Positions 37,135-54,125 of a stretch of DNA of 64,000 bases are shown one piece after another. The DNA is from Nitrospinaceae bacterium. GTDB taxonomy: Bacteria; Nitrospinota; Nitrospinia; Nitrospinales; Nitrospinaceae. The translations under genes and the position numbers were made by a program. Where the stretch lies: assembly GCA_965237905.1 (NCBI GenBank), contig OZ250172.1, positions 1,472,001 to 1,536,000 on the forward strand. The letters run 5' to 3'. Under the pieces are notes generated by a model that was not told where the DNA came from, ran no database searches, and saw only the letters and a program-made list of their open reading frames with translations. Each line of letters starts with the position of its first letter. Within the stretch, counting starts at the first letter, position 1.

Positions 37135-37141
37135 ACCCGTC

Positions 37142-37170
37142 ATTATATGGATTTAGGCCTTTAAAATCAA
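37142..37170 (-). promoter_or_regulatory. Sigma70 promoter of nadB-ftsK, possibly leaderless
   Basis: TTGATT-17 nt-TATAAT, 7 nt before ATG 37134. Confidence 0.65.
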
Positions 37171-37252: not shown

Positions 37253-39607
37253 TTATTTATAAAGTGTTGTGTCGGACTCAAGAGGTTTGTCAGGACCCGA
37301 ATCAGAAGGCAGAGAAGGTTTGAACTGGAGTCTTTTTATCGGCTTGCAGAGCGGCAGAACGATCAGGATGAGCAGGAAAATGGAGCTGACGATCAGCCCT
37401 TCCTTGAACCCTTCCGGAAAGTAATCGAATTCCAGAGTATGCTCGCCCGGTCCCAGTTGAACGGCCCGGTAAAAATGATTGGCCCTCAGGATTTTCCGCT
37501 CTTTGCCATCAACGGTCACTGTCCAGCCAGGAAAGTAGATATCATTCAATACCAGAAACCCGTTCCCATCCTGATGCGTTTTGATGGTGACGTGGTTGGG
37601 CCGGTAAGCCACCTCTTCGACCTGCCCCTGGAAGTGATCGGAAGGCTGGAATTGCACCGGTTGGCTCAGCAGGACTTCCTTGAGAGGATCGAACGATGCG
37701 GCGTAGTAAGTATTAAGAACGGCTCCCTCTGCCAGGACTCTCATTTTGGGAGCGAGGTAGGCCCGGGGTAAAGCGTCCTTAAAAACGCGTATTCGATCGG
37801 AGAGAAGTACCGGTTCTCCGTCCGGGTTAAAATGGGTCTCCTGATCCAGGTTGATCCAATAGCCAACATTACTACGCTTTAAGATACGCAATCTCATTTC
37901 AGGATTGGATTTTCTCAATATCGACATCCAAATCAACTGGTATTTTAATCCCAATCCCAGGCCCGGTCTTCCCACAACATTTTCTACTCCATAAACCATT
38001 CCGGTATAAGGCGTTAAATATTGTTTCATCGCCTTAACGCTATGCAGGGCAGAAGGAGCGTTTGGAAATTCTATGGTGCCGGGATCCTTTTGAATGCTTC
38101 CCGAAAAAATCCGGTATTTGCCGAAGGTGCTCTGCAGATATTTCATATATACCGGTTTTTCGTCATAAAAACTTCTGTCTATCAGCGGAAGCAATTTAAA
38201 ATCTTTGATACTCAAATCAACAAAAATAAAAAGAAAAACTACCGCCGTAAAAACGGATTTTTTGAGCTTGCCAAAATAAAACAGTATGTAAACGAAACCA
38301 AAAACAAACAGAATGGCCATAGAGTTTTCAATTCCAAGAGTCGGTTGCCATATTCCGAGAACTGCAACCATTCCAAAAGTAATGATTGAAACCGACAAAA
38401 CCGGACCAATTTTGAGGCGGCGGTTTTGTGTATGCTTCAAAATATAATCTAAAACGTAACCTGTGAGAAATACTGCGGCAAACGAGGACACATAAAAATA
38501 TTTGGATGGAAACCGAAACAGTTTTAACAAAGGCACCGAATGATAGATATATTCATAGAAGGGGTTGTATTTTCCCAACGCCAACCATAATCCAAATAAA
38601 AAAACCACCAACCAGAAACCGATGGGTTTTTCCTTTCGAATGAAGAACCCGATAAAGATAAAAACCAGCGCCAGGAGCCCCATATGAACGGTATGCAGAA
38701 ACCCGTATAAAAAATCACCCGTGCTCGAATCCCCTATATAACCGGGGGATAACACAAGCGTGGCCAGCTTGGACAGTTCCAGGGACCATGTGGCATGGGC
38801 TTCATAACTCATCCCCGCCTCTCGGGGTGAATAGGGGAGAAGCTCGGCGGCAGGCCACAGTTGAAGCGCCGATAGCCCCAGGGCCAGAAACACTGCTAGT
38901 CCCAGTGAAAGAGTCAACCGGAGGTAAGCCGCAATCCCCTGCTCTTTGGGAGTGAACCAGAGTTCATGCAGAAACAAAAGTCCCACGGTCATGATACTAA
39001 TTTCCGGACATGCCGCCAGCGTCTGGGTGGCAATGGCCAGCACTGTTCCAATAAAATAGCCGATATGTTTTTCCTGCCGGTATTTCAGGAACAACCAGAA
39101 AATCAGGGGAAGCCAAACGGCAGCCATGAAGTAATTACTGAGAAGCACCGATCCGAAAATAAATCCACTCAACATCCCGGTAACGCTGGCACACAACCGG
39201 GCGGCAAGGGAAAGTCCCCAGATTTTCCCCAACAGAAATACAGAAATTCCCAATACCAGAAAATGGAGAAAATAAAACAGGTTGATCGCCAAAACAGAAT
39301 CCTGCAAAAAGAACAGAACGCTGGGAGGATAAAATACTCCCGGATGAAACAGGGACATGAACGGCATCCCGCCATAAACATGAGGAGACCAGTAAGGCAT
39401 CACTCCCTGCTGGTAGGCTTGACCGATGAAATACCTGAAAGGATAGGTGATGAAATGGTAATCCCGGTGGAAAATAGCTTTGCCCGTGAAGAACATCGGG
39501 GAAAAAACATTCAGGGCCACGAGGAACAACAACAGCATCCCGGAAATCTCCTGTAATAATCCAGGATTTAATTTAAAGTTTTTATACTCCAGTTTGTTGA
39601 TTGACAT
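37253..39607 (-). CDS. YfhO-family GT-C membrane protein, paralog 5
   Basis: RD...TYP, PYW.P...GGMPF, FYPP, FRFPSK, PRAY, YFPGW.V.VDG, G.H.LEF.Y.P. Confidence 0.85.
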   Translation of the reverse strand: MSINKLEYKNFKLNPGLLQEISGMLLLFLVALNVFSPMFFTGKAIFHRDYHFITYPFRYFIGQAYQQGVMPYWSPHVYGGMPFMSLFHPGVFYPPSVLFFLQDSVLAINLFYFLHFLVLGISVFLLGKIWGLSLAARLCASVTGMLSGFIFGSVLLSNYFMAAVWLPLIFWLFLKYRQEKHIGYFIGTVLAIATQTLAACPEISIMTVGLLFLHELWFTPKEQGIAAYLRLTLSLGLAVFLALGLSALQLWPAAELLPYSPREAGMSYEAHATWSLELSKLATLVLSPGYIGDSSTGDFLYGFLHTVHMGLLALVFIFIGFFIRKEKPIGFWLVVFLFGLWLALGKYNPFYEYIYHSVPLLKLFRFPSKYFYVSSFAAVFLTGYVLDYILKHTQNRRLKIGPVLSVSIITFGMVAVLGIWQPTLGIENSMAILFVFGFVYILFYFGKLKKSVFTAVVFLFIFVDLSIKDFKLLPLIDRSFYDEKPVYMKYLQSTFGKYRIFSGSIQKDPGTIEFPNAPSALHSVKAMKQYLTPYTGMVYGVENVVGRPGLGLGLKYQLIWMSILRKSNPEMRLRILKRSNVGYWINLDQETHFNPDGEPVLLSDRIRVFKDALPRAYLAPKMRVLAEGAVLNTYYAASFDPLKEVLLSQPVQFQPSDHFQGQVEEVAYRPNHVTIKTHQDGNGFLVLNDIYFPGWTVTVDGKERKILRANHFYRAVQLGPGEHTLEFDYFPEGFKEGLIVSSIFLLILIVLPLCKPIKRLQFKPSLPSDSGPDKPLESDTTLYK

Positions 39608-39638
39608 GAATGAAATAGAGATTGTTAAAAAACGGTTG

Positions 39639-41948
39639 TTATATCGAACTTTTCAAACGTCTTCTCCAAAACACATACCCCACCAGACCCAACACGGGTG
39701 TCACACCGGTGACGATCAAGCCTTCCTTGAACCCTTCCGGGAAGTAATCGAATTCCAGAGTATGCTCGCCCGGCGCCAGCTGAACAGCGCGGTATAAACC
39801 ATAAGCCCTCAAAATCGTTTGTTCCCGGCCATCCACTTTAACCGTCCAGCCAGGAAGATAGGTATCCAGTAACACCAGAAATCCGTTGCCCTCCTGCGCG
39901 GTTTTCACCGTCACATGGTTGGGGCTGTAGCTCACCTCTTCGACTTCCCCTTTAAAATGAGTGGACTCCTGAAATTCTACGGGTCCTCTCAGCAGGACTT
40001 TCTGTAGAGGATCGAACGATTCATCGTAGTAATCAAAAAGAACCCGACCTTTTTCCGGCACCCGCATCTTAGGCACTAAAAACGCCCGGGGCAAAGCATC
40101 TTTAAAAACTTTCACCCGGTTCGGCAGTATAATTGGAAATCCTCCCTTAGCATGATACGTCAGAGAATCTCCATCGATCCAATATTTAACATTACTTCTT
40201 TTTAGTATCACCCTTCTGCGGTCCGGTTCGGATTGAATGAGGAATTGATACCAAATCATATGATTTTGAATATCCATAGCAAGTCCCGGCACTCCGCCCA
40301 CATGCTCAACTCCGAAAATCATTCCCAGAAAAGGATACGCCTGCTGTTTCGCGGCACGCATACCGGCCAAGCGGGAGGGTCCATTGGGGTAGACCATGGG
40401 GTTCGGTTCTTTTTCGATACGGCCGGAATAGGTTCGGTATTTCCCGGCGGAGCCAGCTAATATATCCATCAACATCGGTGGCTTCTCATAAAAATTCCGG
40501 CCGATCAACGGAAGCAGATGGAAATCCTTAACGGACAAATCCATTAAAATCATGGCGAACAAAATCGCCGCGAATCCGTTTCTCTTTATCCTGTTAAAAT
40601 AAAACAGGACATAGGTCACGCTGAAAACCATTACAAAGACCAGAGGGAGTTGGGGTTGCAGATTGGGCTCCAACAGTGCCAATACGGAAGCCGTGCCGAA
40701 AATCAGAATTAAAAGGGTTAAAACCGTGAAGATTTTAATCTGGCGGGTTTGGGTGGCGTTGATCAAGGCATCCAGGCAAAATCCAACAAGAAAAATTGCG
40801 GCAATAGAGGAAACGAATAAATATTTTTCCGGGTATCTGAAAAAATTCAAAAACGGCGTCCAGTTATAAATAAACTCATAAAACGGATTGTATCTCCCCA
40901 GGGCAAAAAATATTCCGAAAAAAAAGACTGCCAACCAGAAACCTACGGCCTTGTTCTTTCGAAACAGGAATGCCAGGACGACGAAAACAAAACCAAAGAT
41001 ACCCATATACAACGTGTGCAAAAAACCTGAGAATATGTTCGAGGCGTCCTTTAGCGGAACTTCCAGGTATCCCTTATATCCGGGAGATAATATAAACGTA
41101 GTCAACTTGGAAGGCTCCAAAGACCAGCGCGAGTGGAAGTCAAAGTCCAATCCGTTTCCTCTAAACGTATGTTCCAGAAGTTGAGCGGTGGGCACCAACT
41201 GAAAAGCCGTCAACCCCAAAGCAAGTAGAACAGCCAGGCCGAGCGTTCCGGTAATACGCACCATTTCCGCCTTATTCCGCGTCTTAGATGTAAACACTAT
41301 GGCGTGAAGATAAAGCAGAATCATGGTCATCACGCTGATTTCCGGGCAGGCCGCAAGTGGTTGAGTGGCGATCGCCAACACCAATCCAATAAACCAGCCA
41401 ATATGATTCCGCTCTTTGAACTGGTAATACAACCAGAAGATCAAGGGCAACCAGACCGATGACAAGAAATAATTACTGCAAAGGGTAGAGGCGACTATCA
41501 ATCCACCCAACATGCCTGTGACACCACAACACAAGGCCGCAAACCAGGAAAGATTCCATGTGCGGCTCAATAAAAAAACGAACACGCCCATGATCAGAAA
41601 ATGCAATACATAATACAGGTTCAATGCCAGGGTAAAGTCATTCAGAAAAAAAAGAATGCTGGGAGGATAAAACACGCCGGGATGCAGGGTCGCCATGAAA
41701 GGCATTCCCCCAAACGTGTGGGTTGTCCAATAAGGGATTACCCCCTGATGATAGGCTTGGGCAAGGAAGTAGCGTACGGGATAGGTGACAAATTGAAAAT
41801 CACGGTAGAAGATAACTTTCCCGTCAAATAACAACGGATAAAAAAAGGCTATTGCGATCGCAAATAAAATGAAAACGCCTATGGCATTTTTTGTGGGTTC
41901 GGAAATTTCCGGATGAGTCTGACCATCAAGAGGCGGTATCTTTTGCAT
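39639..41948 (-). CDS. YfhO-family protein, paralog 4
   Basis: Same motif set (FRYPEK, PRAF, YLPGWTVKVDG). Confidence 0.85.
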   Translation of the reverse strand: MQKIPPLDGQTHPEISEPTKNAIGVFILFAIAIAFFYPLLFDGKVIFYRDFQFVTYPVRYFLAQAYHQGVIPYWTTHTFGGMPFMATLHPGVFYPPSILFFLNDFTLALNLYYVLHFLIMGVFVFLLSRTWNLSWFAALCCGVTGMLGGLIVASTLCSNYFLSSVWLPLIFWLYYQFKERNHIGWFIGLVLAIATQPLAACPEISVMTMILLYLHAIVFTSKTRNKAEMVRITGTLGLAVLLALGLTAFQLVPTAQLLEHTFRGNGLDFDFHSRWSLEPSKLTTFILSPGYKGYLEVPLKDASNIFSGFLHTLYMGIFGFVFVVLAFLFRKNKAVGFWLAVFFFGIFFALGRYNPFYEFIYNWTPFLNFFRYPEKYLFVSSIAAIFLVGFCLDALINATQTRQIKIFTVLTLLILIFGTASVLALLEPNLQPQLPLVFVMVFSVTYVLFYFNRIKRNGFAAILFAMILMDLSVKDFHLLPLIGRNFYEKPPMLMDILAGSAGKYRTYSGRIEKEPNPMVYPNGPSRLAGMRAAKQQAYPFLGMIFGVEHVGGVPGLAMDIQNHMIWYQFLIQSEPDRRRVILKRSNVKYWIDGDSLTYHAKGGFPIILPNRVKVFKDALPRAFLVPKMRVPEKGRVLFDYYDESFDPLQKVLLRGPVEFQESTHFKGEVEEVSYSPNHVTVKTAQEGNGFLVLLDTYLPGWTVKVDGREQTILRAYGLYRAVQLAPGEHTLEFDYFPEGFKEGLIVTGVTPVLGLVGYVFWRRRLKSSI

Positions 41949-44352
41949 TCCAAATGAACCTTTCCATATATTTTTTTAAGAACAAACTCCCGAAGGTAAC
42001 CAACAAAAAACTGAAACCGCTGATCACCAAACCCATCTTCATTCCTTCCGGCAGGTAATCGAATTCCAGTGTATGCTCACCGGGACCCAGTTGCACCGCG
42101 CGATAATAAAAATTGGCTGTTAATATCGGGCGTTCCTGGCCGTCCACCTTGACGGTCCACCCGGGAAAATACGAATCCATCAACACCAGAAATCCGTTTC
42201 CCTCCTGACGGGTCTTTACGGTGGCATGGTTGGGGCGGTAGGCCACCTGCTTCACCTCTCCTTGAAAATGATTCGATTCCTTGAAGTCCACTTTTTCGTT
42301 CAACAGAACTTCCTTGTGCGGATCGAAAGATTCATCGTCGTAGTAGACATTGAGCACGTGATTACCCTCTTCCGGCAGTCTCATTTTGGGAACGAGATAG
42401 GCCCGGGGAAGAGCCCCATTCAACACTTTGACACGGTCCGGAAAAATGACGGGATAGCCCCCCGAATAAGGCGTCAGCGTATCGCCATCAATCCAATATT
42501 TCACATTGCTCCGGGTTAAAATGCGCCTTCTTCTTTCGGGCTGACTTTTGGCAAACACCCGCATCCAGAGAAAATGATTGTTTGGCGTGAGGGCCAACCC
42601 GGTATACCCGTTGACATGCTCCAACCCGTACACCATTCCCGAATACGGCACCAAATGCTCCTTGCTGGCGATAATCTGCGCCAATCGGGTCGGACCCGCA
42701 GGATACATTAAAGGTCGGGGTTGCTGGTCGAGGTTTCCAGAATAAATTCGGTATTCCCCAAAAGATGGGCCCAGAATATCCAAAAGTATCGGTTTCTCTT
42801 CATAATACTTGCGGTCGATCAACGGCAGAAGCTTGATCCCTTTGACCGATAAATCCAAAAGGATCACCACCAGAACCAACACGACAAATGCGCCTTCCTT
42901 CATTCTGCCAAAATAAAACATGACATAGGCAAAACCGAAGGCCGCCAGCAGGCTCATGGAATATCCGGGACTGAGGTGCGGTTTCTCTAACGCCCCCAGC
43001 CCGATAACGCCGAATAAAACGATCACTATTGTGAGCACTGGATAAATTTTGATTCGACGTTCCCGCGTAGAGCGGATCATATAATCCAATCCATAGCCAG
43101 TCAGGAAAACGGCGGCGAAGGCTGATAGATATGTGTATTTTTCCGGGTAGCGGAATAGGCTCAAAAAGGGAACCGCTGGATAAAAAAACTGATAAACAGG
43201 ATTATCTTTTCCAAACGCAAGGAAAAGACCCAGGAAGAACACCGCGAGCCAAAAACCCACCGCCTTTTCCCGGCGAAATAGAAAACCGAATAAGACAAAA
43301 AACAAGCTGATCAATCCCATATAGATCGTATGCAACAGTCCGGAGTTTTGGGACGGTGAGCTTTTTGAAATTGGATTCGAAGGGCCGGCGGAATCGGCTT
43401 CGGATACAGAGGCAATCTCGCCGTCGAGCTTATTGCCATTCACATCAAATCCGGTCATGGAAGATAAAGGTTTGTCAAAGTAACCCTCATAATCGGGGGA
43501 AATCACCAGAGAAGATAATTTGTCCAGATCTATGGACCATTGGGTATGTTGTTCAAAACTCAACCCTCCGCTTCGAAAAGTATGCTTGACCATCTTTGCC
43601 GTGGGGACAAGCTGTAATGCCGATAGTCCCAGAGCCAGGATCACCGCCAATCCAAGAGAGGCCGTCATGCGGGCAATGCCGGGAAATCCCGGCGCCCTGG
43701 GCAGGAAATAAAGAGAATGCGCATACAACAGCAACATGGTCATGATGCTGATCTCCGGGCAGGCCGCCAATGTCTGGGTGGCTATTACCGCGATCAACCC
43801 GATAAAATAGCCGACGTGTTTTCGAACCCAAAATTGGTGAAACATCCAGAAGACCATCGGCAACCAGACCGCGGAAATGAAAAAGTTGCTGACCAAAGTG
43901 GAAGCCATAATGAATCCGCTCAACATACCCGTAATCCCGCAACACAACGCCGCCGCAAAAGAAAGGTTCCAAATCCGAGCCAACAGGTATGTAAAAATTC
44001 CCAGAATTATGAAATGCAGAACATAGAATAAATTCAGAGCATAGGTGGTGTCATCCAGAAAAAATAAAAGACTGGGAGGATAAAACACACCTGGGTGAAA
44101 GCTGGCCATAAAGGGCATTCCTCCATTGGCATGGGGAACCCAATAAGGAATCTCTCCTTGATTAAAAGTATGGCCAAGAAAATACCGGAGGGGATAAGTG
44201 ATCAGGTTGTAGTCGCGGTAAAAAATGACTTTCCCGTCAAACAACATGGGATAAAAAAAACACGCCGCAATCAACAACAGAATGACAACACCGAGGATTT
44301 CCACTCGAGCTTTGGAGTTGTCATAAATAGTTGGATTCTCGGAAGGCTGCAT
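41926..44352 (-). CDS. YfhO-family protein, paralog 3, with an expanded Ser/Pro-rich loop
   Basis: Same motif set; insertion before GLLHTIYMG. Confidence 0.85.
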   Translation of the reverse strand: MQPSENPTIYDNSKARVEILGVVILLLIAACFFYPMLFDGKVIFYRDYNLITYPLRYFLGHTFNQGEIPYWVPHANGGMPFMASFHPGVFYPPSLLFFLDDTTYALNLFYVLHFIILGIFTYLLARIWNLSFAAALCCGITGMLSGFIMASTLVSNFFISAVWLPMVFWMFHQFWVRKHVGYFIGLIAVIATQTLAACPEISIMTMLLLYAHSLYFLPRAPGFPGIARMTASLGLAVILALGLSALQLVPTAKMVKHTFRSGGLSFEQHTQWSIDLDKLSSLVISPDYEGYFDKPLSSMTGFDVNGNKLDGEIASVSEADSAGPSNPISKSSPSQNSGLLHTIYMGLISLFFVLFGFLFRREKAVGFWLAVFFLGLFLAFGKDNPVYQFFYPAVPFLSLFRYPEKYTYLSAFAAVFLTGYGLDYMIRSTRERRIKIYPVLTIVIVLFGVIGLGALEKPHLSPGYSMSLLAAFGFAYVMFYFGRMKEGAFVVLVLVVILLDLSVKGIKLLPLIDRKYYEEKPILLDILGPSFGEYRIYSGNLDQQPRPLMYPAGPTRLAQIIASKEHLVPYSGMVYGLEHVNGYTGLALTPNNHFLWMRVFAKSQPERRRRILTRSNVKYWIDGDTLTPYSGGYPVIFPDRVKVLNGALPRAYLVPKMRLPEEGNHVLNVYYDDESFDPHKEVLLNEKVDFKESNHFQGEVKQVAYRPNHATVKTRQEGNGFLVLMDSYFPGWTVKVDGQERPILTANFYYRAVQLGPGEHTLEFDYLPEGMKMGLVISGFSFLLVTFGSLFLKKYMERFIWNAKDTAS

Positions 44353-44442
44353 ATTTTATAAATTCTGGAGGGTGCCGGTTCATCCGCAGACTTTTAATTC
44401 ATCCTCAATGGTTAACGCCCAGGCCACCGGAACCCCGGTCAT

Positions 44443-45393
44443 TTACCCTTTGAGATTGCGGTTGTATCCCATGTCAAATAGCATGGCGAACAATAGGAAC
44501 AGCAAACCCATCAAGGTGAGGAAGGCAGCGAACAATGCGGTTATGGGAGTCACTTGCCCGATAAAAATGCGGTAGAAGAAATAATATATTCCCATACCGG
44601 ATCCCAATGGGAAAGCAATAAATCCCATGACATAAAAAAATACCAGGGGATGAAAATCCCGGATGACGTACTTACCAAACATCCTGCTGAAAAATCCTTT
44701 AAAGAGCAAAAATGAAATATCGGGAATTACTTTATACAGACGTATTCCGGATTGCTCCCCCACCCCATAGACCGGGCGAATAGGCACGTCCACCACTCGC
44801 ATATTCTCAATATTGAGCTTTACCAGAATATCGTTGGGCACTCCATAGCGCTGAAAAATTTTATCAATATTGATACATTTGAGTGCCTTCAAAGAAATGG
44901 CGGTAAACCCGCATTGGGAATCCGCCACATGCCAATATCCGCCGGCGATTTTTGTCATGAGGGAAAGAATAGCATTGCCGATATATCGATTATGCGGAAT
45001 CAATTCCCACGCTTCGCCATGAAACAGGCGGTTGCCCTTCGAGTAATCGGCGATATCTGTCGCAACGGGATCGACAATGTGAGGCAAATCGTCGGGATGC
45101 ATCTGAGCGTCACCGTTCATGACCACAGTAATATCTATATTGTTTTCCAAGCATACTCGATAACCTGATTGAATGGCTCCGCCCACTCCACGGTTCTCCG
45201 CATGACGGATCAGATCCACTCTGCCGTCTACCTTCACATATTGCTCAACGATTTCGGCTGTTTTATCATCACTGCGATCGTCGATCACAAACACTTTGTC
45301 GACCCAATGCGGCAAGGTCTCGAGTACCTTGATGACCAACTTCTCTTCGTTATGCGCAGTTACCACGACGGCAACCGATTTATTTTTATACAT
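44443..45393 (-). CDS. GT2 polyprenol-phosphate sugar synthase-like protein (DPM1/GtrB type) with 2 C-terminal TM helices
   Basis: AHNEE, DDRSDDKT, NRGVGGA, MNGDAQ, KGNR, DSQCGF; start set at MYKNKS. Confidence 0.88.
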   Translation of the reverse strand: MYKNKSVAVVVTAHNEEKLVIKVLETLPHWVDKVFVIDDRSDDKTAEIVEQYVKVDGRVDLIRHAENRGVGGAIQSGYRVCLENNIDITVVMNGDAQMHPDDLPHIVDPVATDIADYSKGNRLFHGEAWELIPHNRYIGNAILSLMTKIAGGYWHVADSQCGFTAISLKALKCINIDKIFQRYGVPNDILVKLNIENMRVVDVPIRPVYGVGEQSGIRLYKVIPDISFLLFKGFFSRMFGKYVIRDFHPLVFFYVMGFIAFPLGSGMGIYYFFYRIFIGQVTPITALFAAFLTLMGLLFLLFAMLFDMGYNRNLKG

Positions 45394-45532
45394 GGCTTTT
45401 TGGATTTCTAAGAAGATATTAGATTGGCTGAAAAATATAAAACCCTTCCTTATTATAGTAACGAATCCATAGAACAAAAAAAGGGTTTTTTAATGACATT
45501 CATGGATCCGGCCCCCGCCCAGAGCCCTTCTC

Positions 45533-47845
45533 CTATTTACCCTGAACCGGGCTCGCCTGCCGCCATCTCCACAGAGGCAAAGCCATCAGGAAAACGCCTA
45601 CGAAGGAGCTGACTATCAGACCCGCCTTGAACCCTTCCGGAAAATAATCAAACTCCAGAGTATGAGACCCTGAATCCAGTTGAACTGCCCGGTAAAAATG
45701 ATTGGCCCTTAAAATAGGTTTTTCTTCACCGTCTACTTTGACGGTCCAGCCTGGGAAATAGGAGTCCATCAACACCAGAAACCCACTGCCCTGCTGGACG
45801 GTTTTAACCGTGACGTGGTTGGGGCGGTAGGCCACCTCTTCGACAGTTCCATTGAAATGAGAAGACGGCTCAAAATTGACCGGCTGGCTGAAAAGAACTT
45901 CCGACAGCGGATTGAAGGATTCATCATAATAGGTGTTGAGTATTTTGGACTCTTCTTCTAATTTGATCCGGCCCACCATGTAAGCCCGGGGAAGAACATC
46001 CTCCCATATCTTGACCCGGTCCGGCAGAATTACCGGGACGCCCCGGACACTGAAGCGAGTTAAAGAGTCCCAGTCAATCCAGTATTTCACGTTACTGCGT
46101 TTTAAAATCCGAAACCGCTTATCCGGAGGAGCATCGATCAATGCGTAAAACCATACCAGATGTTTTCTTAATTCGAGACCCAAACCCGGGTGTCCCCCCG
46201 CATGCTCCACCCCCAGAACCATTCCGGTAAAGGGCCGCAGATATTGTTTCGCTAAAAATAATTCGTCCATCCAGGTGGGTCCGGGAGGATTCATGTCAGG
46301 ATTCGGTGTCTTTGCAATCCAACCTGAATAGATCCTGTATTTTCCAAATGAATCTCCTACAGTATCCATGACCAGTGGTTTTTCTTCATAAAACGTTCGG
46401 TCAATCATAGGCAGAAGCCGCAAATCCTTTGCGCTCAAATCCAATAAAATCAGTAGACATACCACAGCGCCAAACACCGATTGACTTAATTTTCTGTAAT
46501 GAAACATCACCAGGGAACAACCAAAGATCAGCAGAACAACCAAAGGCAACTTTGGATCAAGATACGAGTGCCCCATTGCAAGGCTCAGGGTTACTCCAAA
46601 CAAAAAAATCAGAACGGTCAAAACCGGAATAATTTTTAACTGGCGTTTCTCGACATGCTGGATGAGAGCATCCAAAATATAACCTGAAAGAAAAACAGCC
46701 GCGAAAGAGGATATAAAAAAATACTTTTCAGGAAAGCGAAACAAATTCAGTAAAGGAACCCAGGGATACATCACTTCATAGATTGGATTGAATTTTCCAA
46801 ACGACAGGAATAGACCCAATAAAAAAACCACAAACCAAAATCCGATAGGTTTCTCACGGCGGAAAATAAACCCAAGCAGAATAAAAGCCAAACCCAATAC
46901 ACCCATATAAATCGTGTGAAGAAAGCCTGAAAACCACGACGGATAATCGCGGGTGTCCAACAGCCCCCCATAATCTGGAGACAACAGCAGGGTGGCCAAC
47001 TTGGCCGGCTCCAGAGACGATTGCGTATGGTTCTCAAAAGTCAGCCCGGTATCCCTTAAGGAATGCTCCATGAGTTTGGCTGTGGGAATCAATTGCAGGG
47101 CGGCAAAGCCCAGAGCCAGGATCACGGCTAATCCCAGGGAAGCTGTCATGCGCGCAACGCCGGGAATCCCCGGCGCCCTGGGCAGGAAGTAGAGCGAATG
47201 GGCATACAGCAGTATCATAGTCATAATACTGATTTCCGGGGATGCCGCCAGCGTCTGAGCGGCAATGGCCACCACCAATCCAATAAAGTAACCGATATGA
47301 TTACGCATCCAGAATTTGTGGAACAGCCAAAACACCATGGGCAACCAAACCGCGGCCATAAAAAAATTACTGAGCAGGGTGGAAGCAACTATAAACCCGC
47401 TCAACATCCCCGTAATCCCGCAACATAACGCCGACACAAAAGAAATGCCCCAGCTTCGGGCCAACAGAAATGAAAAAGAACCAAGAATCAAAAAATGAAC
47501 AACATAGAACAAGTTGAGCGCCAGCACAGTATCTTTTAATAAGAATAGAATTCCCGGAGGGTAAAACACGCCCGCATGAAACCCCGCCATAAACGGCATT
47601 CCGGCGTATACATTGGAATTCCAGTAGGGGATCGCCCCTTCTTGAAAAGTCTGAGCAAGAAAAAATTTAAACGGGAAGGTGACAAAAGTAAAATCGCGGT
47701 AGAACATCACCTTATCCCCAAACAGCATAGGAGAAAAGAAAGTTACCGCGATCGCAAACAATATAAAAATGCCAAGACCATTTTTTTCAGGTCCAAAAAT
47801 TCTCCGATTTACCTGAGCGTCGATTTCTCCCATATTGCTGATCAA
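45533..47845 (-). CDS. YfhO-family protein, paralog 2
   Basis: Same motif set (FRFPEK, DSYFPGWTVKVDG). Confidence 0.85.
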   Translation of the reverse strand: MISNMGEIDAQVNRRIFGPEKNGLGIFILFAIAVTFFSPMLFGDKVMFYRDFTFVTFPFKFFLAQTFQEGAIPYWNSNVYAGMPFMAGFHAGVFYPPGILFLLKDTVLALNLFYVVHFLILGSFSFLLARSWGISFVSALCCGITGMLSGFIVASTLLSNFFMAAVWLPMVFWLFHKFWMRNHIGYFIGLVVAIAAQTLAASPEISIMTMILLYAHSLYFLPRAPGIPGVARMTASLGLAVILALGFAALQLIPTAKLMEHSLRDTGLTFENHTQSSLEPAKLATLLLSPDYGGLLDTRDYPSWFSGFLHTIYMGVLGLAFILLGFIFRREKPIGFWFVVFLLGLFLSFGKFNPIYEVMYPWVPLLNLFRFPEKYFFISSFAAVFLSGYILDALIQHVEKRQLKIIPVLTVLIFLFGVTLSLAMGHSYLDPKLPLVVLLIFGCSLVMFHYRKLSQSVFGAVVCLLILLDLSAKDLRLLPMIDRTFYEEKPLVMDTVGDSFGKYRIYSGWIAKTPNPDMNPPGPTWMDELFLAKQYLRPFTGMVLGVEHAGGHPGLGLELRKHLVWFYALIDAPPDKRFRILKRSNVKYWIDWDSLTRFSVRGVPVILPDRVKIWEDVLPRAYMVGRIKLEEESKILNTYYDESFNPLSEVLFSQPVNFEPSSHFNGTVEEVAYRPNHVTVKTVQQGSGFLVLMDSYFPGWTVKVDGEEKPILRANHFYRAVQLDSGSHTLEFDYFPEGFKAGLIVSSFVGVFLMALPLWRWRQASPVQGK

Positions 47846-50136
47846 ACAGACCTTTTCAAATATTTTCCCCAGAGTAGGCCCCCGAGGGTGAGTAGTAATA
47901 AACTGATCCCGCTAATCACCAAACCCAACTTTAATCCTTCCGGGAAATATTCAAATTCCAGAGTATGCTCACCCGGACCCAACTGCACCGCCCGGTAAAA
48001 ATGATTGGCTTTTAGAATAGGTTTTTCTTCACCGTCCACCTTGACCGTCCAGCCCGGAAAATAGGAATCCAATAAAACCAAAAACCCATTGCCTTCCTGA
48101 CGGGTTTTAACTGTAACGTGATTGGGGCGATACCTCACCTGTTCGACTTTACCATTAAAATTGGGAGATGCATCGAATTTCACCGATTCACTTAGCAGGA
48201 CTTCCTTGAAGGGATCGAACGATGCATTATAATATGCGCTTAATATATGGCGATCTTTTTCAAGTCTCCGATTGGGCACCATGAAGGCGCGAGGCAGGGC
48301 GGCTTTCAATATCTTTAACCTGTCTGGCAGAATGATCGGACGACCTTCGGAAAACATCGTGGGGCTATCTCCATCAATCCAATATTTCACATTACTTCTC
48401 TCCAAGATTCGGATCCTTTGAGCCGGGGAAGATTGATTAAGCCCTTCATTCCAAATCCAGGGATTCTTTAACTCCAAACCTATACCCAAAATACCGTTGG
48501 GATATTCCACACCAAAAATCATCCCATAATAGGGATAAAGATGTTCCCTGGCCGCATAATACCCTCCCTTAATATTAGGCTCGTTTGGAAATCCTTTAAA
48601 TATCTGAGTGTGTATTTTGCCTGTATAAACGCGAAAATGCTCATTTTCACTTTTAATATGCGCCAGCAACTTGGGCTGTGTTTGATAAAAATCGTTGCCC
48701 ACTGTCGGAATCACCTTATAACCCTGTGTCGCCAAATCCAGCCCTAACAACAATAAAATAGACGCATAAAATAAATTTCCCCCCAACTTTCCAAAATAAA
48801 ACAGCAAATAGATTCCACCAAAGACAAGGAGCGTGATGAATGACCCGGTCGCGTTTTTTTCAGGTTGAACGACAGACGCGACTACAACCATACCCAAAAC
48901 CAGAATCAGGGGCAGTAACACCGAACGTAATTTTATTTCCCGCTTCTGAGTCGCCGTAACCAGTATATCCAAAACATGGCCTGTCAAAAATACCAAAGCA
49001 AAAACAGAAAGATTAAAGAACTTCTCTGGAAACCGAAACAAATCCATTAAAGGAATCCACGAATAGATCCACTTATAAATCGGGTTGTGAGACCCTGACG
49101 CCAGAAAAATGCCAATCAAAAATACCCATAACCAAAATTGAACCGCTTTTTGTTGACGAAATTTAATGGCCACAATCAAAAAAAGGAATGGAATGAGGCC
49201 CATGTAGATACTTATAAAAAATGTGGTGATTCTGCCTCGGGGTCCGCTACCGGAAAAGTATTCATCAAAATTATTCGGCACTATGAGTTCGCCTAACTGC
49301 TTGAAGGCCATGGACCGGTATGAGTGGACCTCGAAAGACAATCCTCCTTCCCTTAAAGAAAGCTCAATCAATTGATAAGTGGGTATCAATTGTAAAGCCG
49401 ATGCCCCCAATGCCAGGATCACCAGGGCGGCTAACGCCGTTATTCGACCAGTCAGAGAAAGCGAAAATTGTTCTTTGGGAACCAAAATCAGGGAATGAGC
49501 CAGGAGCAATAATACCGTCAGAATACATAGCTCAGGGCTGGCGGCCAGAATTTGGCAAACCAAGGCAAGGGTTGCCGCGATAAAATACAGCGCTTTTTTT
49601 TCAATAACAAATTTTTGAAAAAGAAGGAATATTAAGGGTAACCAGACTACCGCCAAAAACCAATTACTGAGCATGGTGGAGGATAGGAAAAAACTGCTCA
49701 ATAAAGCCGTGAGAGAGGAACACAACGCCGCCGGCACAGAAAGCTCCCAACTTCTGGCCAAATAGTAAATGGGTATTATCAAAATAATAAAATGAAATAT
49801 ATAAAATATATTTAATGCAAGGGTGGAATTCGGCAGGGAAAAGATAATGCTGGGCGGATAAAAAACTCCTGTGTGAAAGGCCGCCATAAAAGGAGTTCCC
49901 GAATCAATTGACGGCGTCCAAAAAGGCAGGGCGCCCGACTGAAACGTCTGAGCAAGGAATGATTTAATGGGATAGGTTATAAATGAAAAATCGCTATAGT
50001 ACAGACTCCTTCCAAAAAATAAAATGGGGCTGAAAAAAACAACCAAACAAAGTAGTAGTATAAAAATACCCAGGCTGTCTTCTGACCAAACTTGGCTTTT
50101 TTTACCGAAATTGATCTTCAGAAAACCACTCTTCAT
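47842..50136 (-). CDS. YfhO-family protein, paralog 1
   Basis: PFWTP...SGTPF, FRFPEK, PRAF, DSYFPGW. Confidence 0.85.
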   Translation of the reverse strand: MKSGFLKINFGKKSQVWSEDSLGIFILLLCLVVFFSPILFFGRSLYYSDFSFITYPIKSFLAQTFQSGALPFWTPSIDSGTPFMAAFHTGVFYPPSIIFSLPNSTLALNIFYIFHFIILIIPIYYLARSWELSVPAALCSSLTALLSSFFLSSTMLSNWFLAVVWLPLIFLLFQKFVIEKKALYFIAATLALVCQILAASPELCILTVLLLLAHSLILVPKEQFSLSLTGRITALAALVILALGASALQLIPTYQLIELSLREGGLSFEVHSYRSMAFKQLGELIVPNNFDEYFSGSGPRGRITTFFISIYMGLIPFLFLIVAIKFRQQKAVQFWLWVFLIGIFLASGSHNPIYKWIYSWIPLMDLFRFPEKFFNLSVFALVFLTGHVLDILVTATQKREIKLRSVLLPLILVLGMVVVASVVQPEKNATGSFITLLVFGGIYLLFYFGKLGGNLFYASILLLLGLDLATQGYKVIPTVGNDFYQTQPKLLAHIKSENEHFRVYTGKIHTQIFKGFPNEPNIKGGYYAAREHLYPYYGMIFGVEYPNGILGIGLELKNPWIWNEGLNQSSPAQRIRILERSNVKYWIDGDSPTMFSEGRPIILPDRLKILKAALPRAFMVPNRRLEKDRHILSAYYNASFDPFKEVLLSESVKFDASPNFNGKVEQVRYRPNHVTVKTRQEGNGFLVLLDSYFPGWTVKVDGEEKPILKANHFYRAVQLGPGEHTLEFEYFPEGLKLGLVISGISLLLLTLGGLLWGKYLKRSV

Positions 50137-50218
50137 AAAGTTAACTCTTCCAGAACAAAAGGGTCAATCTCTCAAGTTTTAGTTGTAATTGATGTCAAAC
50201 AGCATAGCCAGCGATTTT

Positions 50219-52483
50219 CTATTTATTTTGATTCAACTCCTTCGCAAGAGCCATCAGTTCCCGGACATTGGAGATATAACTTTGAGTCTTCAGGAAAGCG
50301 GCTTGGGCCGATGGATTCATTTTCAAATCCCTAAGAGTTTTAGCTATTTCCAGATGCACCCGAAAAGACCGCGGATTAAGTTGTTCCGCCTGCCGGAATG
50401 AATCCAATGCCACTTGTAATTGCCCCTGAGCTCTGTAAAGCAAGCCCTTTCCCAACCACGCCTCAAAGCTTTCCGGAATCTTTTCTGTGATCTGGTCCAG
50501 CAGTATTTTCGCCTTCTCCAAACGACGATCGGCAATCAAATTATCCAGATACTGAAATATCCATTGCGGATTACTATGTTGCCCCAGGAATTTCCCTATC
50601 ATCGTGAGCACTTCCCGCTCCAATTCATATTGTCCCGTATCATGAAAATAATCCCGCATTGAATAAATCCAGACTTTCGGGTTATTCAGCCAATCCAAAT
50701 CGCGGCCGCTATTCGGTCTTGAAAGCTCCGCTTCCAACAAACTTTTAAACTCCTCCCAGGACCGCTGGTGTGAAAATTCATTACCCGTGAAAGAAGAAAC
50801 TGGAGAACCATATTGCAGTAAAATATTGCGATAGGGTTGCCAGCGGGAAGTAAATTTTGTTTGTTCGTATATAACCGAGTTTTGCTCCATCACCACTGGA
50901 GTCAAAACAGCATTTTTCTCAAGAAATTCCTGAGTATAGTCGGAAATACCCTCGAGGGATTTAAAATCATGTTTTTCATTATCAGGTAAAAAAAGATTTG
51001 GGTATCTTTTTGAAGTCAGCAGACCGGTACGGTGCGGGGAAATGAGGTCCCACACAGTCACTGCCGTCACATCATCCCTGAGGCGGCGCACATCCTGATT
51101 ATAATTGTAAAAAAACCAGGACAGACCGCTAACGAACACGGCCCGGTCAGGAAGGGTCAAGTACACCTGGCGGGTAAACGTTTCCGAAAGATGGTTCCAG
51201 GAATGATCAACTCTCACATAATTGTTCTTAATCATCGTCCAGGGAATAGCTAGGCTGATAAGCAGTAAAGCCACTCTTCCCCAACGAATCCCAAGAGGCC
51301 CGGGTTTATTGAGTATAATTTTTTCGAGGGATTCATCGGAAGGGTTAGGGGTCCGGGATTTCCACCACCGGGTAAATAGTATCTGGTAAAGAAACAGCGC
51401 TGTAAACAGGGAAACAATGACATAAGAAGGCAAAAAGGCCTCCCCCCGCCACGATGTAAAAAAGACGATATTGGTCCCTACAATCACCGCGCAAAAGAGA
51501 AAAAAAGGCAGACTTTTTCTAAAACAGATCACCGCTCCCGCCAAAAACCCGATCGCAGATACCAGGGAAAGGTTATGGTGGATATCCATTATGAAAACAG
51601 ATCCGATATGCCGGATTTTTGAAAACAGGCCAGCGATCCAACTCATTGCCGATTCCCGGGTTTCCGCTACCGTGGTGGCAACCGCTGCTGGCTGGTTTAA
51701 AATCTCAAAATGCGTGTGGGAATCCTTCTGATCCGTGATCTGAAATAAAAATCCCCGTAATGTCTCCGGGTTACCCCAATCAAAGGTCGGTTCCGTTAAG
51801 GAACGGATTGGCAAATACATGTAAATCGAAAAACCCAAAAGAAAAAACAGGACAGATAACGAGAGATGTCGCCATCGATTGTGCCGACACCAGAAAAGGA
51901 ACAAAATCAAAATGGCGGGAAGGTAAAAGGCCACCGTTCCATGATTCCCGGCGCTCAAACCATAAACCAGTGCCGCAGAATACAGATAACGGATGTCCTC
52001 CTTTTCTTTCCATTTCAAGAGACCCAATATGACTAAAACCGTAAACAGGGTATGCAGGGTGTACACTTCCGCCAGCATGGTGTTTCCCCAGAAGGGCATG
52101 CAAAAAGCCATAAAACCGACCGGCAATAATGAGGGCCATAAAAAAGAAGAGCCCGAATCCTCTGGCCCCGCCAGCACTCTCAAAAATGTGACCGAAGCCA
52201 TATAAAGAGCTAATAAAGCCAGACACGCCATCAGACTGGAGAAGAGATTGACCTTGAAGGGAATGGCCCCCATCGGGAAAAAAGTCACCGCCTTGGCCAT
52301 CAAATTATAGATGGGAAATCCGGCCGGGTGGCTGATACCCAGCGAAAAAGCGGTATTGACAAACTCCGGGGTATCTCTATAAAAAACGGTCGGGGAAAGA
52401 CTGGATAAATAAACGAACCAGGCAAGGACTAACAAACAAAAGATGGGAATATTTCTTGAATAGGCGGGATTCTCAGAGCACAT
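50219..52483 (-). CDS. DUF2723 / TMEM260-like protein O-glycosyltransferase with C-terminal TPRs
   Basis: PTV..RDTPEF......LGISHPAGFP.Y, AEVYTL, NH, YLPIRS, DWGNP; TPR-like helices at the C-terminus. Confidence 0.85.
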   Translation of the reverse strand: MCSENPAYSRNIPIFCLLVLAWFVYLSSLSPTVFYRDTPEFVNTAFSLGISHPAGFPIYNLMAKAVTFFPMGAIPFKVNLFSSLMACLALLALYMASVTFLRVLAGPEDSGSSFLWPSLLPVGFMAFCMPFWGNTMLAEVYTLHTLFTVLVILGLLKWKEKEDIRYLYSAALVYGLSAGNHGTVAFYLPAILILFLFWCRHNRWRHLSLSVLFFLLGFSIYMYLPIRSLTEPTFDWGNPETLRGFLFQITDQKDSHTHFEILNQPAAVATTVAETRESAMSWIAGLFSKIRHIGSVFIMDIHHNLSLVSAIGFLAGAVICFRKSLPFFLFCAVIVGTNIVFFTSWRGEAFLPSYVIVSLFTALFLYQILFTRWWKSRTPNPSDESLEKIILNKPGPLGIRWGRVALLLISLAIPWTMIKNNYVRVDHSWNHLSETFTRQVYLTLPDRAVFVSGLSWFFYNYNQDVRRLRDDVTAVTVWDLISPHRTGLLTSKRYPNLFLPDNEKHDFKSLEGISDYTQEFLEKNAVLTPVVMEQNSVIYEQTKFTSRWQPYRNILLQYGSPVSSFTGNEFSHQRSWEEFKSLLEAELSRPNSGRDLDWLNNPKVWIYSMRDYFHDTGQYELEREVLTMIGKFLGQHSNPQWIFQYLDNLIADRRLEKAKILLDQITEKIPESFEAWLGKGLLYRAQGQLQVALDSFRQAEQLNPRSFRVHLEIAKTLRDLKMNPSAQAAFLKTQSYISNVRELMALAKELNQNK

Positions 52484-52494
52484 CCAATGAACTC

Positions 52495-52533
52495 AAAAAA
52501 GAAACTCTTCCCACCCCAAAGGGTGGGAAGAGT
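52495..52533 (-). terminator. Strong intrinsic terminator after pilin 1
   Basis: 13-bp perfect stem ACTCTTCCCACCC/GGGTGGGAAGAGT followed by TTCTTTTTT on the minus strand. Confidence 0.85.
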
Positions 52534-52566
52534 ATCATTGCAATTAAAACCAAACTCCAAATAACC

Positions 52567-52935
52567 TTACATCCGGGCAATTGCGCCAAGAGAGTTGAGG
52601 CTGAAAGAATTGGTAGAGTTAGTATTTTGTCCAGTGCCATTGAAACTGGTCTCAATACCTGTAGCGACAACACTTACGCCAGTCGACTGAATGTAGCCAT
52701 AAGTCGTCAGGGTGTACTGGGCTGAGTTACAAGTAGCCAGAGATCCTGAATCGGCCCAGTAAGCCTTACAAGCCAGATAAATGTTATGCAAGTTGGCTTG
52801 GGCGTCAGAATCGTACGCACGTGATTTATACTGATTGAACTGCGGGATAGCAATAGCCGCCAAAATACCGATGATGGCAATAACGATCAGCAGTTCGATC
52901 AAAGTGAAACCTTTTTGATTTCTTAATTTAGTCAT
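52567..52935 (-). CDS. pilA: Type IVa major pilin, copy 1
   Basis: [33 protein letters not shown]; 113-aa mature protein. Confidence 0.95.
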
Positions 52936-53045
52936 TCTATTTACTCCTCCTAAAGACATCAATAATATTTGCCAATAATAAAACCAAAAGCTTTTTGGGA
53001 CTCTCCCCAAATTTTGAATCTAGTATTCGGTTTTGCCATTTAAGA

Positions 53046-53114
53046 GGCAATACCAATGCCATACCTTGCAAACCCCACTGAAAATAATACTTTCCCTTAT
53101 TTTTCAAATAGTTA
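53046..53114 (-). promoter_or_regulatory. Sigma54 promoter plus IHF-like site for pilin 1
   Basis: TGGCATTGGTATTGCC (53061-53046); TTTCAA-ATAG-TTA at 53102-53114. Confidence 0.75.
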
Positions 53115-53169
53115 AGGTACTTTAATTTAATTTCTTCCCGGACGTTATCTTATGAAAATTCTCAAAAGA

Positions 53170-53205
53170 GACAAATTGTGTCACTCTGGAAGACAAAAAT
53201 TGTGC
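53170..53205. promoter_or_regulatory. Putative enhancer (PilR-like activator sites)
   Basis: GACAAATTGTGTC and GACAAAAATTGTGC, starts 22 bp apart, 110-145 bp upstream of the sigma54 site. Confidence 0.45.
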
Positions 53206-53444
53206 AACTCCATTTGGTACAAGGGGTTCCCCCGAATTACCCAAACTCATTCCGCAAACTGTCTGACGATGATGCCTCTTTAAATATTCTATCGAGGTTG
53301 ATGCAATAATTTGAGTTTTGTTGGAGTAATCCAAGGGAGGTTTGAGGGGGAATTCATCCCCCATCAACGGAAAGCTATCTGACTTGTGAGAATAGAAGGA
53401 ATGTAACAGATGGGAACAACACTTGAAAGACCAAGATGCCGTTA

Positions 53445-53846
53445 TTACAGCCGGTTGATTGTCCCTTTTTGGTCGATACTATACGAGTTGGTGCTGTTGG
53501 TGTTCTGAGCAACGGCCGTAAAAGCCCAATCCACGCCCAAGCCGCTTATACTAACATCCGTTGACTGAATGTAGCCGTAAGTCGTCGTCGCATAGTAAGC
53601 CGAGGTACAAATCGCATTAGACCCACTATCTCCCCAATACGCTTTACAGGCAATATAAACATTATGCAAGTTGGCTTGGGCGTCAGAATCGTAAGAGCGG
53701 CTTTTATATTGATTGAATTGCGGAATGGCAATCGCCGCTAAAATCCCAATGATGGCGATCACAATCAACAACTCAATCAGGGTAAACCCAGCCTGAGAGC
53801 CGGAAGTTTTTCTTTTCAAATTTTTCAACTTATTGACACCTTTCAT
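53445..53846 (-). CDS. pilA: Type IVa pilin, copy 2
   Basis: [24 protein letters not shown]; 113-aa mature protein; 82/113 identical to copy 1 by hand count. Confidence 0.93.
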   Translation of the reverse strand: MKGVNKLKNLKRKTSGSQAGFTLIELLIVIAIIGILAAIAIPQFNQYKSRSYDSDAQANLHNVYIACKAYWGDSGSNAICTSAYYATTTYGYIQSTDVSISGLGVDWAFTAVAQNTNSTNSYSIDQKGTINRL

Positions 53847-53898
53847 TACCGCTCTCCTCATCTTCTTTCTAGAGTTGAATCTTAACAAGCCTAGACAG

Positions 53899-53967
53899 TG
53901 CAAGGGCAATGCCAACTCAACCATAGTTTCCAGTATAAGGGGCAACTTTCCGTTTATCAATTAGTTA
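53899..53967 (-). promoter_or_regulatory. Sigma54 promoter plus IHF site for pilin 2
   Basis: TGGCATTGCCCTTGCA (53914-53899); TATCAA-TTAG-TTA at 53955-53967 matches WATCAA-N4-TTR. Confidence 0.78.
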
Positions 53968-54125
53968 TAAACTTACTCTTGAATATCCTAATTCCAATAC
54001 TATGTATAATCCGAAGTTCCACACCATAAACTGACAAAAATAGGAACTATGATAGACTCTATGGCCGAAAATTGTTTGGACTCCATTCGATTTCAAGGTA
54101 AGGTTTTTGGAATAAGGATAAATTG

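Follow-up and report, generated by a model that had tools for sequence, protein, structure and literature searches.

The question raised by this locus is what a run of membrane enzymes of the GT-C glycosyltransferase type does immediately behind two type IV pilin genes. The locus lies in a 64,000-nt stretch (the window) of contig OZ250172.1 of assembly GCA_965237905.1, a genome consisting of one contig and 96% complete, and the names of the nearest homologs place the host in the Nitrospinaceae. It encodes two prepilins, a DUF2723 (TMEM260-like) protein, a family 2 glycosyltransferase (GT2) and five YfhO paralogs (Y1 to Y5). We conclude that this pilin-DUF2723-enzyme cassette is a real, non-chance system, and we assign a probability of about 0.63 to the reading that it is a pilin O-glycosylation system in which GT-C enzymes use a polyprenol-phosphate sugar in parallel. 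In such a system, the GT2 would load one sugar onto polyprenol phosphate, the TMEM260-like enzyme would move this sugar, in the periplasm, onto Ser/Thr residues of the adjacent type IV pilin, and the YfhO paralogs would likely be additional transferases acting in parallel rather than obligatory extenders.

Linkage of DUF2723 and Pilin Genes

Of the 41 genomes searched from the order Nitrospinales, 18 gave a match to the domain PF11028 (DUF2723), the host among them, and a pilin gene lies directly upstream of DUF2723 in 16 of the 17 other positive relatives, the 17th locus being at a contig end. In the cassettes of these 17 relatives, GT2 was present in 13, absent from 2 and cut off in 2, and YfhO occurred in 9, with between 1 and 4 copies observed, was missing from 7 and was cut off in 1. 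A GTDB scan that used motifs from ten distant DUF2723 homologs, and not the pilin, yielded 87 loci, 80 of which were kept. It was found that a pilin gene is upstream in 68 of the 80 (67 scored automatically and one overlapping open reading frame (ORF) scored by hand), that none is present in 8, and that 4 are at contig ends. Thirty of these loci are titled Nitrospinota and overlap the set of Nitrospinales relatives, and the other 50 carry the labels Nitrospirota, Thermodesulfobacteriota, Myxococcota, Binatota, Bdellovibrionota and Zetaproteobacteria, among others. A pilin gene is thus the immediate neighbor of DUF2723 in at least six phyla, although the genes around the pair differ, and the pilA-DUF2723 neighborhood noticed in an earlier sequence-only reading of this DNA is conserved in relatives. 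The conserved core is pilin-DUF2723, usually with GT2.

The unselected control was a set of 301 genomes of one phylum, of which 47 contained PF11028 (67 matches); 66 newly fetched control loci, checked over 1.5 kb upstream, comprised 20 that were pilin-linked, 42 that were not and 4 at ends. A DUF2723 tree was computed from 148 aligned rows, 20 of which were dropped (6 duplicates, the rest shorter than 330 residues) and among which two identical pairs remain, using a quick search, a midpoint root and Shimodaira–Hasegawa-like approximate likelihood ratio test (SH-aLRT) support, with no approximately unbiased test. The window protein falls in one clade of 79 rows (SH-aLRT 100), consisting of 71 pilin-linked rows, 2 unlinked rows and 6 contig ends; the 49 rows outside it are 5 linked, 41 unlinked, 2 contig ends and 1 unknown. 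When only scorable rows are counted, a pilin gene is directly upstream in 71 of 73 within the clade versus 5 of 46 outside it, and the pilin-link label requires 6 changes on the tree versus at least 26 when shuffled. Therefore, the pilin link marks one DUF2723 clade.

The pilin-linked cases outside the main clade are L154, L155, L158 (with L175 and L176), L174 and L195, some of them in tandem pairs, and the pilin-DUF2723 link may have more than one origin. A contig of 1.8 kb bearing the title Cyclobacteriaceae (L068) carries a pilin and a DUF2723 gene very similar to those of the window and is probably mis-binned.

Fold and Conserved Residues of the DUF2723 Protein

The window DUF2723 protein matched PF11028 with 99.9 bits (cut-off 24.2; E 1.9e-28) and, in a profile comparison, residues 31-490 of human TMEM260 (9RQL) with E 3e-53. 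A GT-C core, a luminal Rossmann-like alpha/beta domain and tetratricopeptide repeats (TPR) were found in the order seen in TMEM260. A single-sequence AlphaFold model was unusable (predicted local distance difference test score, pLDDT, of 43); an alignment-based model had a pLDDT of 88.8, and its top Foldseek matches were GT-C enzymes, namely STT3/AglB/PglB, ArnT and ALG9/12, with 9RQL not among the matches listed. The GT-C type that the sequence-only reading gave to the cassette enzymes is borne out by the Pfam, profile and Foldseek matches. Within the pilin-linked clade, D37 (corresponding to D52 of TMEM260) and E40 are each present in 63/63 ungapped rows and H52 (corresponding to H67) in 68/68, and E139, H181 and R227 are near-invariant. 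Mannose transfer to Ser/Thr is a candidate activity of this protein, with the pilin as its putative acceptor. Modelling DUF2723 in complex with the globular part of the pilin gave a score of 0.00, which weighs neither way.

The GT2 Protein and the Sugar Donor

The closest solved relative of the GT2 profile is 5MLZ, a dolichol-phosphate mannose synthase (E 8.8e-18), and the matches that follow include ArnC and GtrB-type enzymes; a PDB sequence search with the single window GT2 gave 0 hits. This relationship supports the earlier proposal that the GT2 charges a polyprenol-phosphate sugar. The GT2 proteins are 52-83% identical across phyla. At the DxD position the window GT2 has N-G-D; among the aligned proteins the first Asp is replaced (by N or A), and the second Asp and the Gln are invariant in 22/22. 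The best named model, AglJ, scored 72 bits against a cut-off of 325, which is not an equivalog match, and the PgfS model scored 37 bits against 500. Being so far below these cut-offs, the window GT2 matches no named enzyme of known sugar.

By hand counting, with at most 7 candidates scored per genome, 20 of the 25 sampled genomes whose DUF2723 is pilin-linked or falls in the clade have a GT2 of this subfamily, compared with 0 of 22 genomes that carry other DUF2723 alone and 16 of the 276 genomes outside the linked or clade set; in some of these 16 it is next to STT3 or other glycosyltransferase genes. In two genomes a member of this subfamily directly follows an STT3/PglB gene (L204:5082-7304 and L205:4903-7137). 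No STT3 was found in the host genome (0 matches) and linked pilins have no conserved N-sequon column, which together argue against N-linkage.

The YfhO Array and the Gene Slot after pilA

The five cassette YfhO genes are the only copies found in the host genome, in which DUF2723 is single-copy. Their products matched PF09586 with 56-91 bits (cut-off 28.5; E 3e-15 to 9e-26), the best stretch being the C-terminal 80 residues. The PgfM1 and PgfM2 models gave 18-41 bits against 1400-1500, which is not an equivalog match, and a PDB sequence search with the YfhO profile gave nothing meaningful. An Asp in the first outer loop, D51, is invariant in 33/33 aligned rows, and by comparison with other GT-Cs it may have a catalytic role. 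The paralogs are 44-57% identical pairwise. Y2-Y5 are part of an expansion at the level of the genus (12 rows, support 100), each with orthologs in other species, and Y1 is separate. Recent gene conversion among the paralogs was considered and discarded, since the best local DNA identity is 65-74%.

Outside the Nitrospinota, YfhO was found in 0 of the 50 GTDB loci (the profile was built from the five window paralogs, and many flanks are short). YfhO is a Nitrospinota add-on to the cassette, in 0-5 copies. In one genome of the same genus without a DUF2723 match, YfhO lies 300 nt after pilA, as judged by coordinates only. Among 23 Nitrospinales genomes without a PF11028 match, 20 were fetched: in 4, pilA is followed by a membrane+TPR gene together with YfhO, and in 3 by YfhO directly; 2 have a YfhO remnant, 3 have no GT-C gene and 1 has several GT-C genes around pilins; in 5, all of one genus, pilA is elsewhere with no GT-C neighbor, and 2 are contig ends. 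The membrane+TPR proteins have an invariant Asp-Asp (DD) in the first loop, a motif resembling that of TMTC (PMC7801869, in the part available), and their Atlas neighbors include PMT_2/TPR clusters and, at 0.94, a TMTC_DUF1736 cluster. A Pfam search of these proteins found only TPR, and "TMTC-like" is therefore a lead. The slot after pilA thus hosts DUF2723, TMTC-like and YfhO genes in different relatives.

These distributions bear on how the enzymes would cooperate. The sequence-only reading had DUF2723 priming the pilin and the YfhO array extending the glycan, that is, a relay in which DUF2723 adds the first sugar and the YfhO paralogs extend or branch it stepwise. The co-orientation of all genes with short or overlapping junctions is what such a relay would lead one to expect, and the retention of Y2-Y5 as distinct orthogroups across species of the genus would fit different linkages; moreover, TfpW is a GT-C enzyme able to polymerize on pilin, according to the available part of bioRxiv 10.1101/2020.04.19.049825. 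However, DUF2723 occurs without YfhO in 7 of the 17 relatives and in the 50 non-Nitrospinota loci, YfhO follows pilins without DUF2723, and the cassette has one GT2 for five YfhO. In addition, the YfhO-family enzymes PgtC2 and PgfM1 are described as primary protein glycosyltransferases that themselves initiate by transferring sugar from undecaprenyl phosphate (Und-P) to Ser/Thr-rich regions (PMC12041528, in the part available), and the mannose added by human TMEM260 remains unelongated in the available text of bioRxiv 10.64898/2026.03.17.711096. We therefore regard the relay as unlikely. Since YfhO and DUF2723 are each found at pilin loci without the other, parallel action is the simpler account, and each retained YfhO orthogroup might add a different site or sugar.

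A distant YfhO group was also seen, in which 12 of 13 fetched genes are within 900 nt of a different pilin-type gene, the 13 loci having been picked because their coordinates suggested pilin proximity. These loci (L222-L234, in 13 Nitrospinales genomes) represent a second locus, where a small pilin with a P-K/R-F-x-D-L motif, which we take to be MshA-like, adjoins the YfhO gene and a PMT_2 protein often comes next; this locus was not found in the window's genome.

Pilins as Candidate Acceptors

Both prepilins have the type IVa G↓F-x-x-x-E motif and a short leader, and matched PF07963 with E 1.5e-11 and 6.6e-9. In the host genome, three PilB-like ATPase matches stay under the equivalog cut-off, and two further, shorter ones are probably PilT-like. 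As the sequence-only reading stated, pilin 1 has 20 Ser/Thr (10 Ser and 10 Thr) in its last 60 residues; pilin 2 has 18, and the genome background, taken from long ORFs, is about 11%. That reading took the richness as a pointer to glycosylation, but it is a trait of the whole pilin family and is not diagnostic: median Ser/Thr content is 34% in DUF2723-linked pilins (n = 28), 26% in pilins with other GT-C neighbors (n = 11), 29% in pilins of empty or remnant slots (n = 3, excluding two pilins with degenerate motifs) and 37% in the genus without an adjacent GT-C (n = 5). Ser/Thr richness was accordingly rejected as evidence for the enzyme link. Likewise, QNTNSTNS is present in both window pilins as claimed, but it is not conserved beyond close relatives. 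Neither it nor an N-sequon was retained as an acceptor motif, because there is no conserved N-x-S/T column and many linked pilins have no sequon. Several of the best-conserved Ser/Thr columns in linked pilins occupy alternating strand positions, and the proposed linkage would be O-linked to Ser/Thr in beta strands or loops.

A third close pilin paralog lies elsewhere in the host genome (2876683-2877081, minus strand). It is 58% identical to pilA1, has 28% Ser/Thr in its C-terminal part and no glycosyltransferase neighbor, and could be an acceptor in trans. In two of three empty-slot genomes the prepilin motif is degenerate (L046:5993-6361 and L049:1206-1562), which suggests pilus decay together with cassette loss.

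Evidence against Pilin Glycosylation and Alternative Roles

Several observations count against the proposed pilin O-glycosylation, and the most direct concern the DUF2723 active site. Human TMEM260 requires D441, its general base, and binds the donor through D52, H67, R264 and Y267 (bioRxiv 10.64898/2026.03.17.711096, available part). In the sequence alignment, the D441 position is a two-residue gap before S-W-F in the window protein, a loss that the sequence-only reading missed; the Asp is lacking from 74 of the 75 clade rows that could be scored, and 41 of the 49 rows outside have it. The donor loop is also changed, D251 (73/79 in the clade) standing in the R264 column and D254 of the window protein at Y267; the adjoining residue is usually Arg in the clade and is Gln in the window protein. 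W345 is invariant in the clade, and R355 is not confidently aligned. By alignment, then, the window protein resembles TMEM260 in architecture and departs from it in two catalytic-residue features. D441 loss and pilin linkage were inherited together as a single event and do not count as repeated co-evolution, with only 3 independent pairs to compare (sign test p = 1). Two of the five linked cases outside the clade (L174 and L195) keep the Asp. On the acceptor side, no group of pilins differs significantly in Ser/Thr content (p = 0.11 for DUF2723-linked pilins versus those without a GT-C neighbor, 29-47%, n = 5), and in an alignment of 90 linked pilins none of the Ser/Thr columns of the globular domain is invariant, the most conserved ones reaching 50-70%. 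On the donor side, no GtrA flippase was found in the host genome, and 8 PMT_2 matches and two O-antigen-ligase-like genes there could use the donor or modify the pilin. The GT2 subfamily also occurs beside STT3 and other glycosyltransferase clusters and is therefore a general donor synthase, not one that is pilin-exclusive.

The altered active site could mean that the DUF2723 clade binds a lipid-linked sugar and the pilin without being a Ser/Thr transferase, either as an inactive adaptor or chaperone or by using another acceptor atom (an Asn amide or Tyr). The deleted base and remodelled donor-loading loop favor this, as do Tyr27 and Tyr50, which are kept in 84 and 82 of the 90 linked pilins, far above any globular Ser/Thr. 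However, both tyrosines also occur in pilins without DUF2723, N-sequons are missing from many linked pilins, the donor synthase GT2 travels with the clade, and D37, E40, H52, E139, H181 and R227 are near-invariant in the clade. We consider this explanation quite unlikely. For the proposed Ser/Thr transferase, D37 or the clade-specific D251 may take over the role of the base; other GT-Cs are proposed to use the D52 equivalent as base (bioRxiv 10.64898/2026.03.17.711096, available part).

Alternatively, the cassette could act on lipopolysaccharide, another glycolipid or surface proteins, the position at pilA being a variable hotspot of surface genes. YfhO of Bacillus subtilis acts with CsbB on lipoteichoic acid (PMC5836110, available part), some YfhO copies lie away from pilins, the GT2 is not pilin-exclusive and the cassette region is lower in guanine-plus-cytosine content. 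Immediate pilin adjacency in at least six phyla with different flanks is difficult to reconcile with such a hotspot, as is the occupation of the slot by three GT-C families that have protein-glycosylating members. Another target therefore seems distinctly improbable, though less so for the YfhO array than for DUF2723.

Gene Order, Flanks and Transcription Signals

The nine co-oriented genes are all intact and in the order claimed in the sequence-only reading (Table 1). The GT2 (PF00535, E 2e-22) has a longest ORF beginning at 45477, and its tabulated extent is taken from the ATG start. The longest ORF of pilA2 begins at 53960, with a likely start at 53846 behind AGGAG; the likely start of pilA1 was read from its ribosome-binding site and ATG. 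The nine genes lie between nadD and nadB, as claimed, but pilA beside nadD is the usual arrangement in Nitrospinales relatives and nadB directly follows pilA in two of them, so that the variable insert sits between pilA and nadB.

Table 1. Cassette genes, flanking genes and predicted signals, in window coordinates.
Feature	Position	Strand	Evidence
pilA2 (distal), type IVa prepilin of 113 aa when mature, with 2 Cys	53445..53846	-	PF07963
pilA1 (proximal), type IVa prepilin of 113 aa when mature, likely the major pilin	52567..52935	-	PF07963
DUF2723/TMEM260-like GT-C; luminal alpha/beta domain, C-terminal TPR	50219..52483	-	PF11028
Y1, YfhO-family GT-C, outside the Y2-Y5 expansion	47842..50136	-	PF09586
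Y2, YfhO-family GT-C	45533..47845	-	PF09586
GT2, predicted polyprenol-phosphate sugar synthase; hydrophobic C-terminus	44443..45393	-	PF00535; 316 aa from ATG
Y3, YfhO-family GT-C	41926..44352	-	PF09586
Y4, YfhO-family GT-C	39639..41948	-	PF09586
Y5, YfhO-family GT-C	37253..39607	-	PF09586
nadB, downstream flank, outside cassette	35476..37143	-	Over NCBIfam cut-off
nadD, divergent upstream flank, outside cassette	54123..54833	+	Over NCBIfam cut-off
Putative sigma-54-type (-24/-12) promoter motif 5' of pilA2	53900..53914	-	Motif scan
Putative sigma-54-type promoter motif 5' of pilA1	53047..53061	-	Motif scan
Intrinsic-terminator-like hairpin between pilA1 and DUF2723; 13 bp stem, T tail	52504..52533	-	Longest stem in region

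The motif scan used the sigma-54 (-24/-12) consensus. There are 3 matches in the window versus 0.35 expected, two of the 3 being upstream of the two pilins, and the motif is upstream of 40 of 84 DUF2723-linked pilins versus 43 of 3150 random windows. The 90-nt stretch between pilA1 and DUF2723 has a predicted fold of -30.5 kcal/mol. The resulting layout, in the order sigma-54 motif, pilin, terminator and then enzymes, would fit a highly expressed pilin with weaker read-through into the modifying enzymes.

Comparison with Known Systems

In Pseudomonas, pilA is followed by the gene of the transferase TfpW, and in the window, too, a GT-C gene directly follows the major pilin gene. TfpW of P. aeruginosa group IV is, as proposed here, a pilin-dedicated membrane transferase using a lipid-linked monosaccharide, but it belongs to a different enzyme family, its D-arabinofuranose is supplied by DprE1/E2 and a GtrA-like flippase, and it also polymerizes (bioRxiv 10.1101/2020.04.19.049825, available part). 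As to such a supply, no GtrA was found in the host genome; TfpW and DprE were not searched for directly. The principle of pilin glycosylation by a GT-C enzyme from a lipid-linked sugar is thus already known from TfpW; new in the window are a clade that lacks the base, an enzyme slot with interchangeable occupants and the multiplication of YfhO.

Human TMEM260 (PF11028; PDB 9RQL/9RQM/9RQN; PMC10214176, available part) has the same order of GT-C, luminal alpha/beta and TPR parts, with D52 and H67 equivalents kept; the window protein differs in lacking the D441 base (a loop two residues shorter), in the replacement of R264/Y267 and in its proposed acceptor, a pilin without the IPT sequon. The streptococcal GtrB/PgtC2 and PgfS/PgfM1/PgfM2 systems likewise pair a GT2 making Und-P-sugar with YfhO-family GT-Cs acting on Ser/Thr-rich regions, but their hosts are Gram-positive, the acceptors are disordered and there is no TMEM260-like partner (PMC12041528, available part). 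CsbB-YfhO of B. subtilis has the same GT2 and YfhO pairing, with extracytoplasmic transfer from a lipid carrier, but the acceptor is a wall polymer, YfhO is single and there is no pilin (PMC5836110, available part).

Full-text searches, which covered few subscription papers, found, among the papers listed, no publication tying DUF2723/TMEM260 homologs to pilins, nor was a substrate for bacterial TMEM260 homologs found in the searched literature; DUF2723 turned up in a single paper, the one defining the enzyme, the available part of which mentions bacterial members only as "distant homologs" (PMC10214176). If pilin O-glycosylation is correct, the bacterial relatives of TMEM260 would gain a first substrate, and because the candidate acceptor is small, abundant and encoded next door, the substrate question is directly testable with three genes. 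The missing base offers a natural comparison for a human disease enzyme with a newly described mechanism. The same slot also hosts bacterial TMTC-like proteins, TMTC being a human O-mannosyltransferase family without a known bacterial substrate.

The purpose of the modification could be to mask the pilus, for example from phage, as pilin glycosylation blocks phage in Pseudomonas (bioRxiv 10.1101/150227, available part); if this carries over, it would be a variable defense trait in a major marine nitrifier group. A broader account is possible but on balance doubtful: an old pilin-dedicated TMEM260 branch, in at least six phyla, would glycosylate pilins by a rewired, base-less active site, the Nitrospinales slot would swap or stack TMEM260-like, TMTC-like and YfhO enzymes, and gain and loss of tandem YfhO genes would diversify pilus glycoforms among marine nitrite oxidizers under phage pressure.

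Other Candidate Enzymes and Acceptors

Three tandem multi-membrane proteins of 616-629 aa with weak PMT_2 matches are encoded at 24852-30434 (plus strand) of the window, as a further GT-C array at a distance of 7 kb from the cassette; the tandem is also present in one relative. At 21751-23256 (plus strand) there is a 501-aa membrane protein with no Pfam match, possibly another GT-C, homologs of which lie beside pilins in one relative (G022, L050) and directly after DUF2723 in L098. Elsewhere in the host genome, an ORF of 11,040 codons (959919-993041, minus strand) may encode a giant surface protein, which could be an alternative GT-C acceptor.

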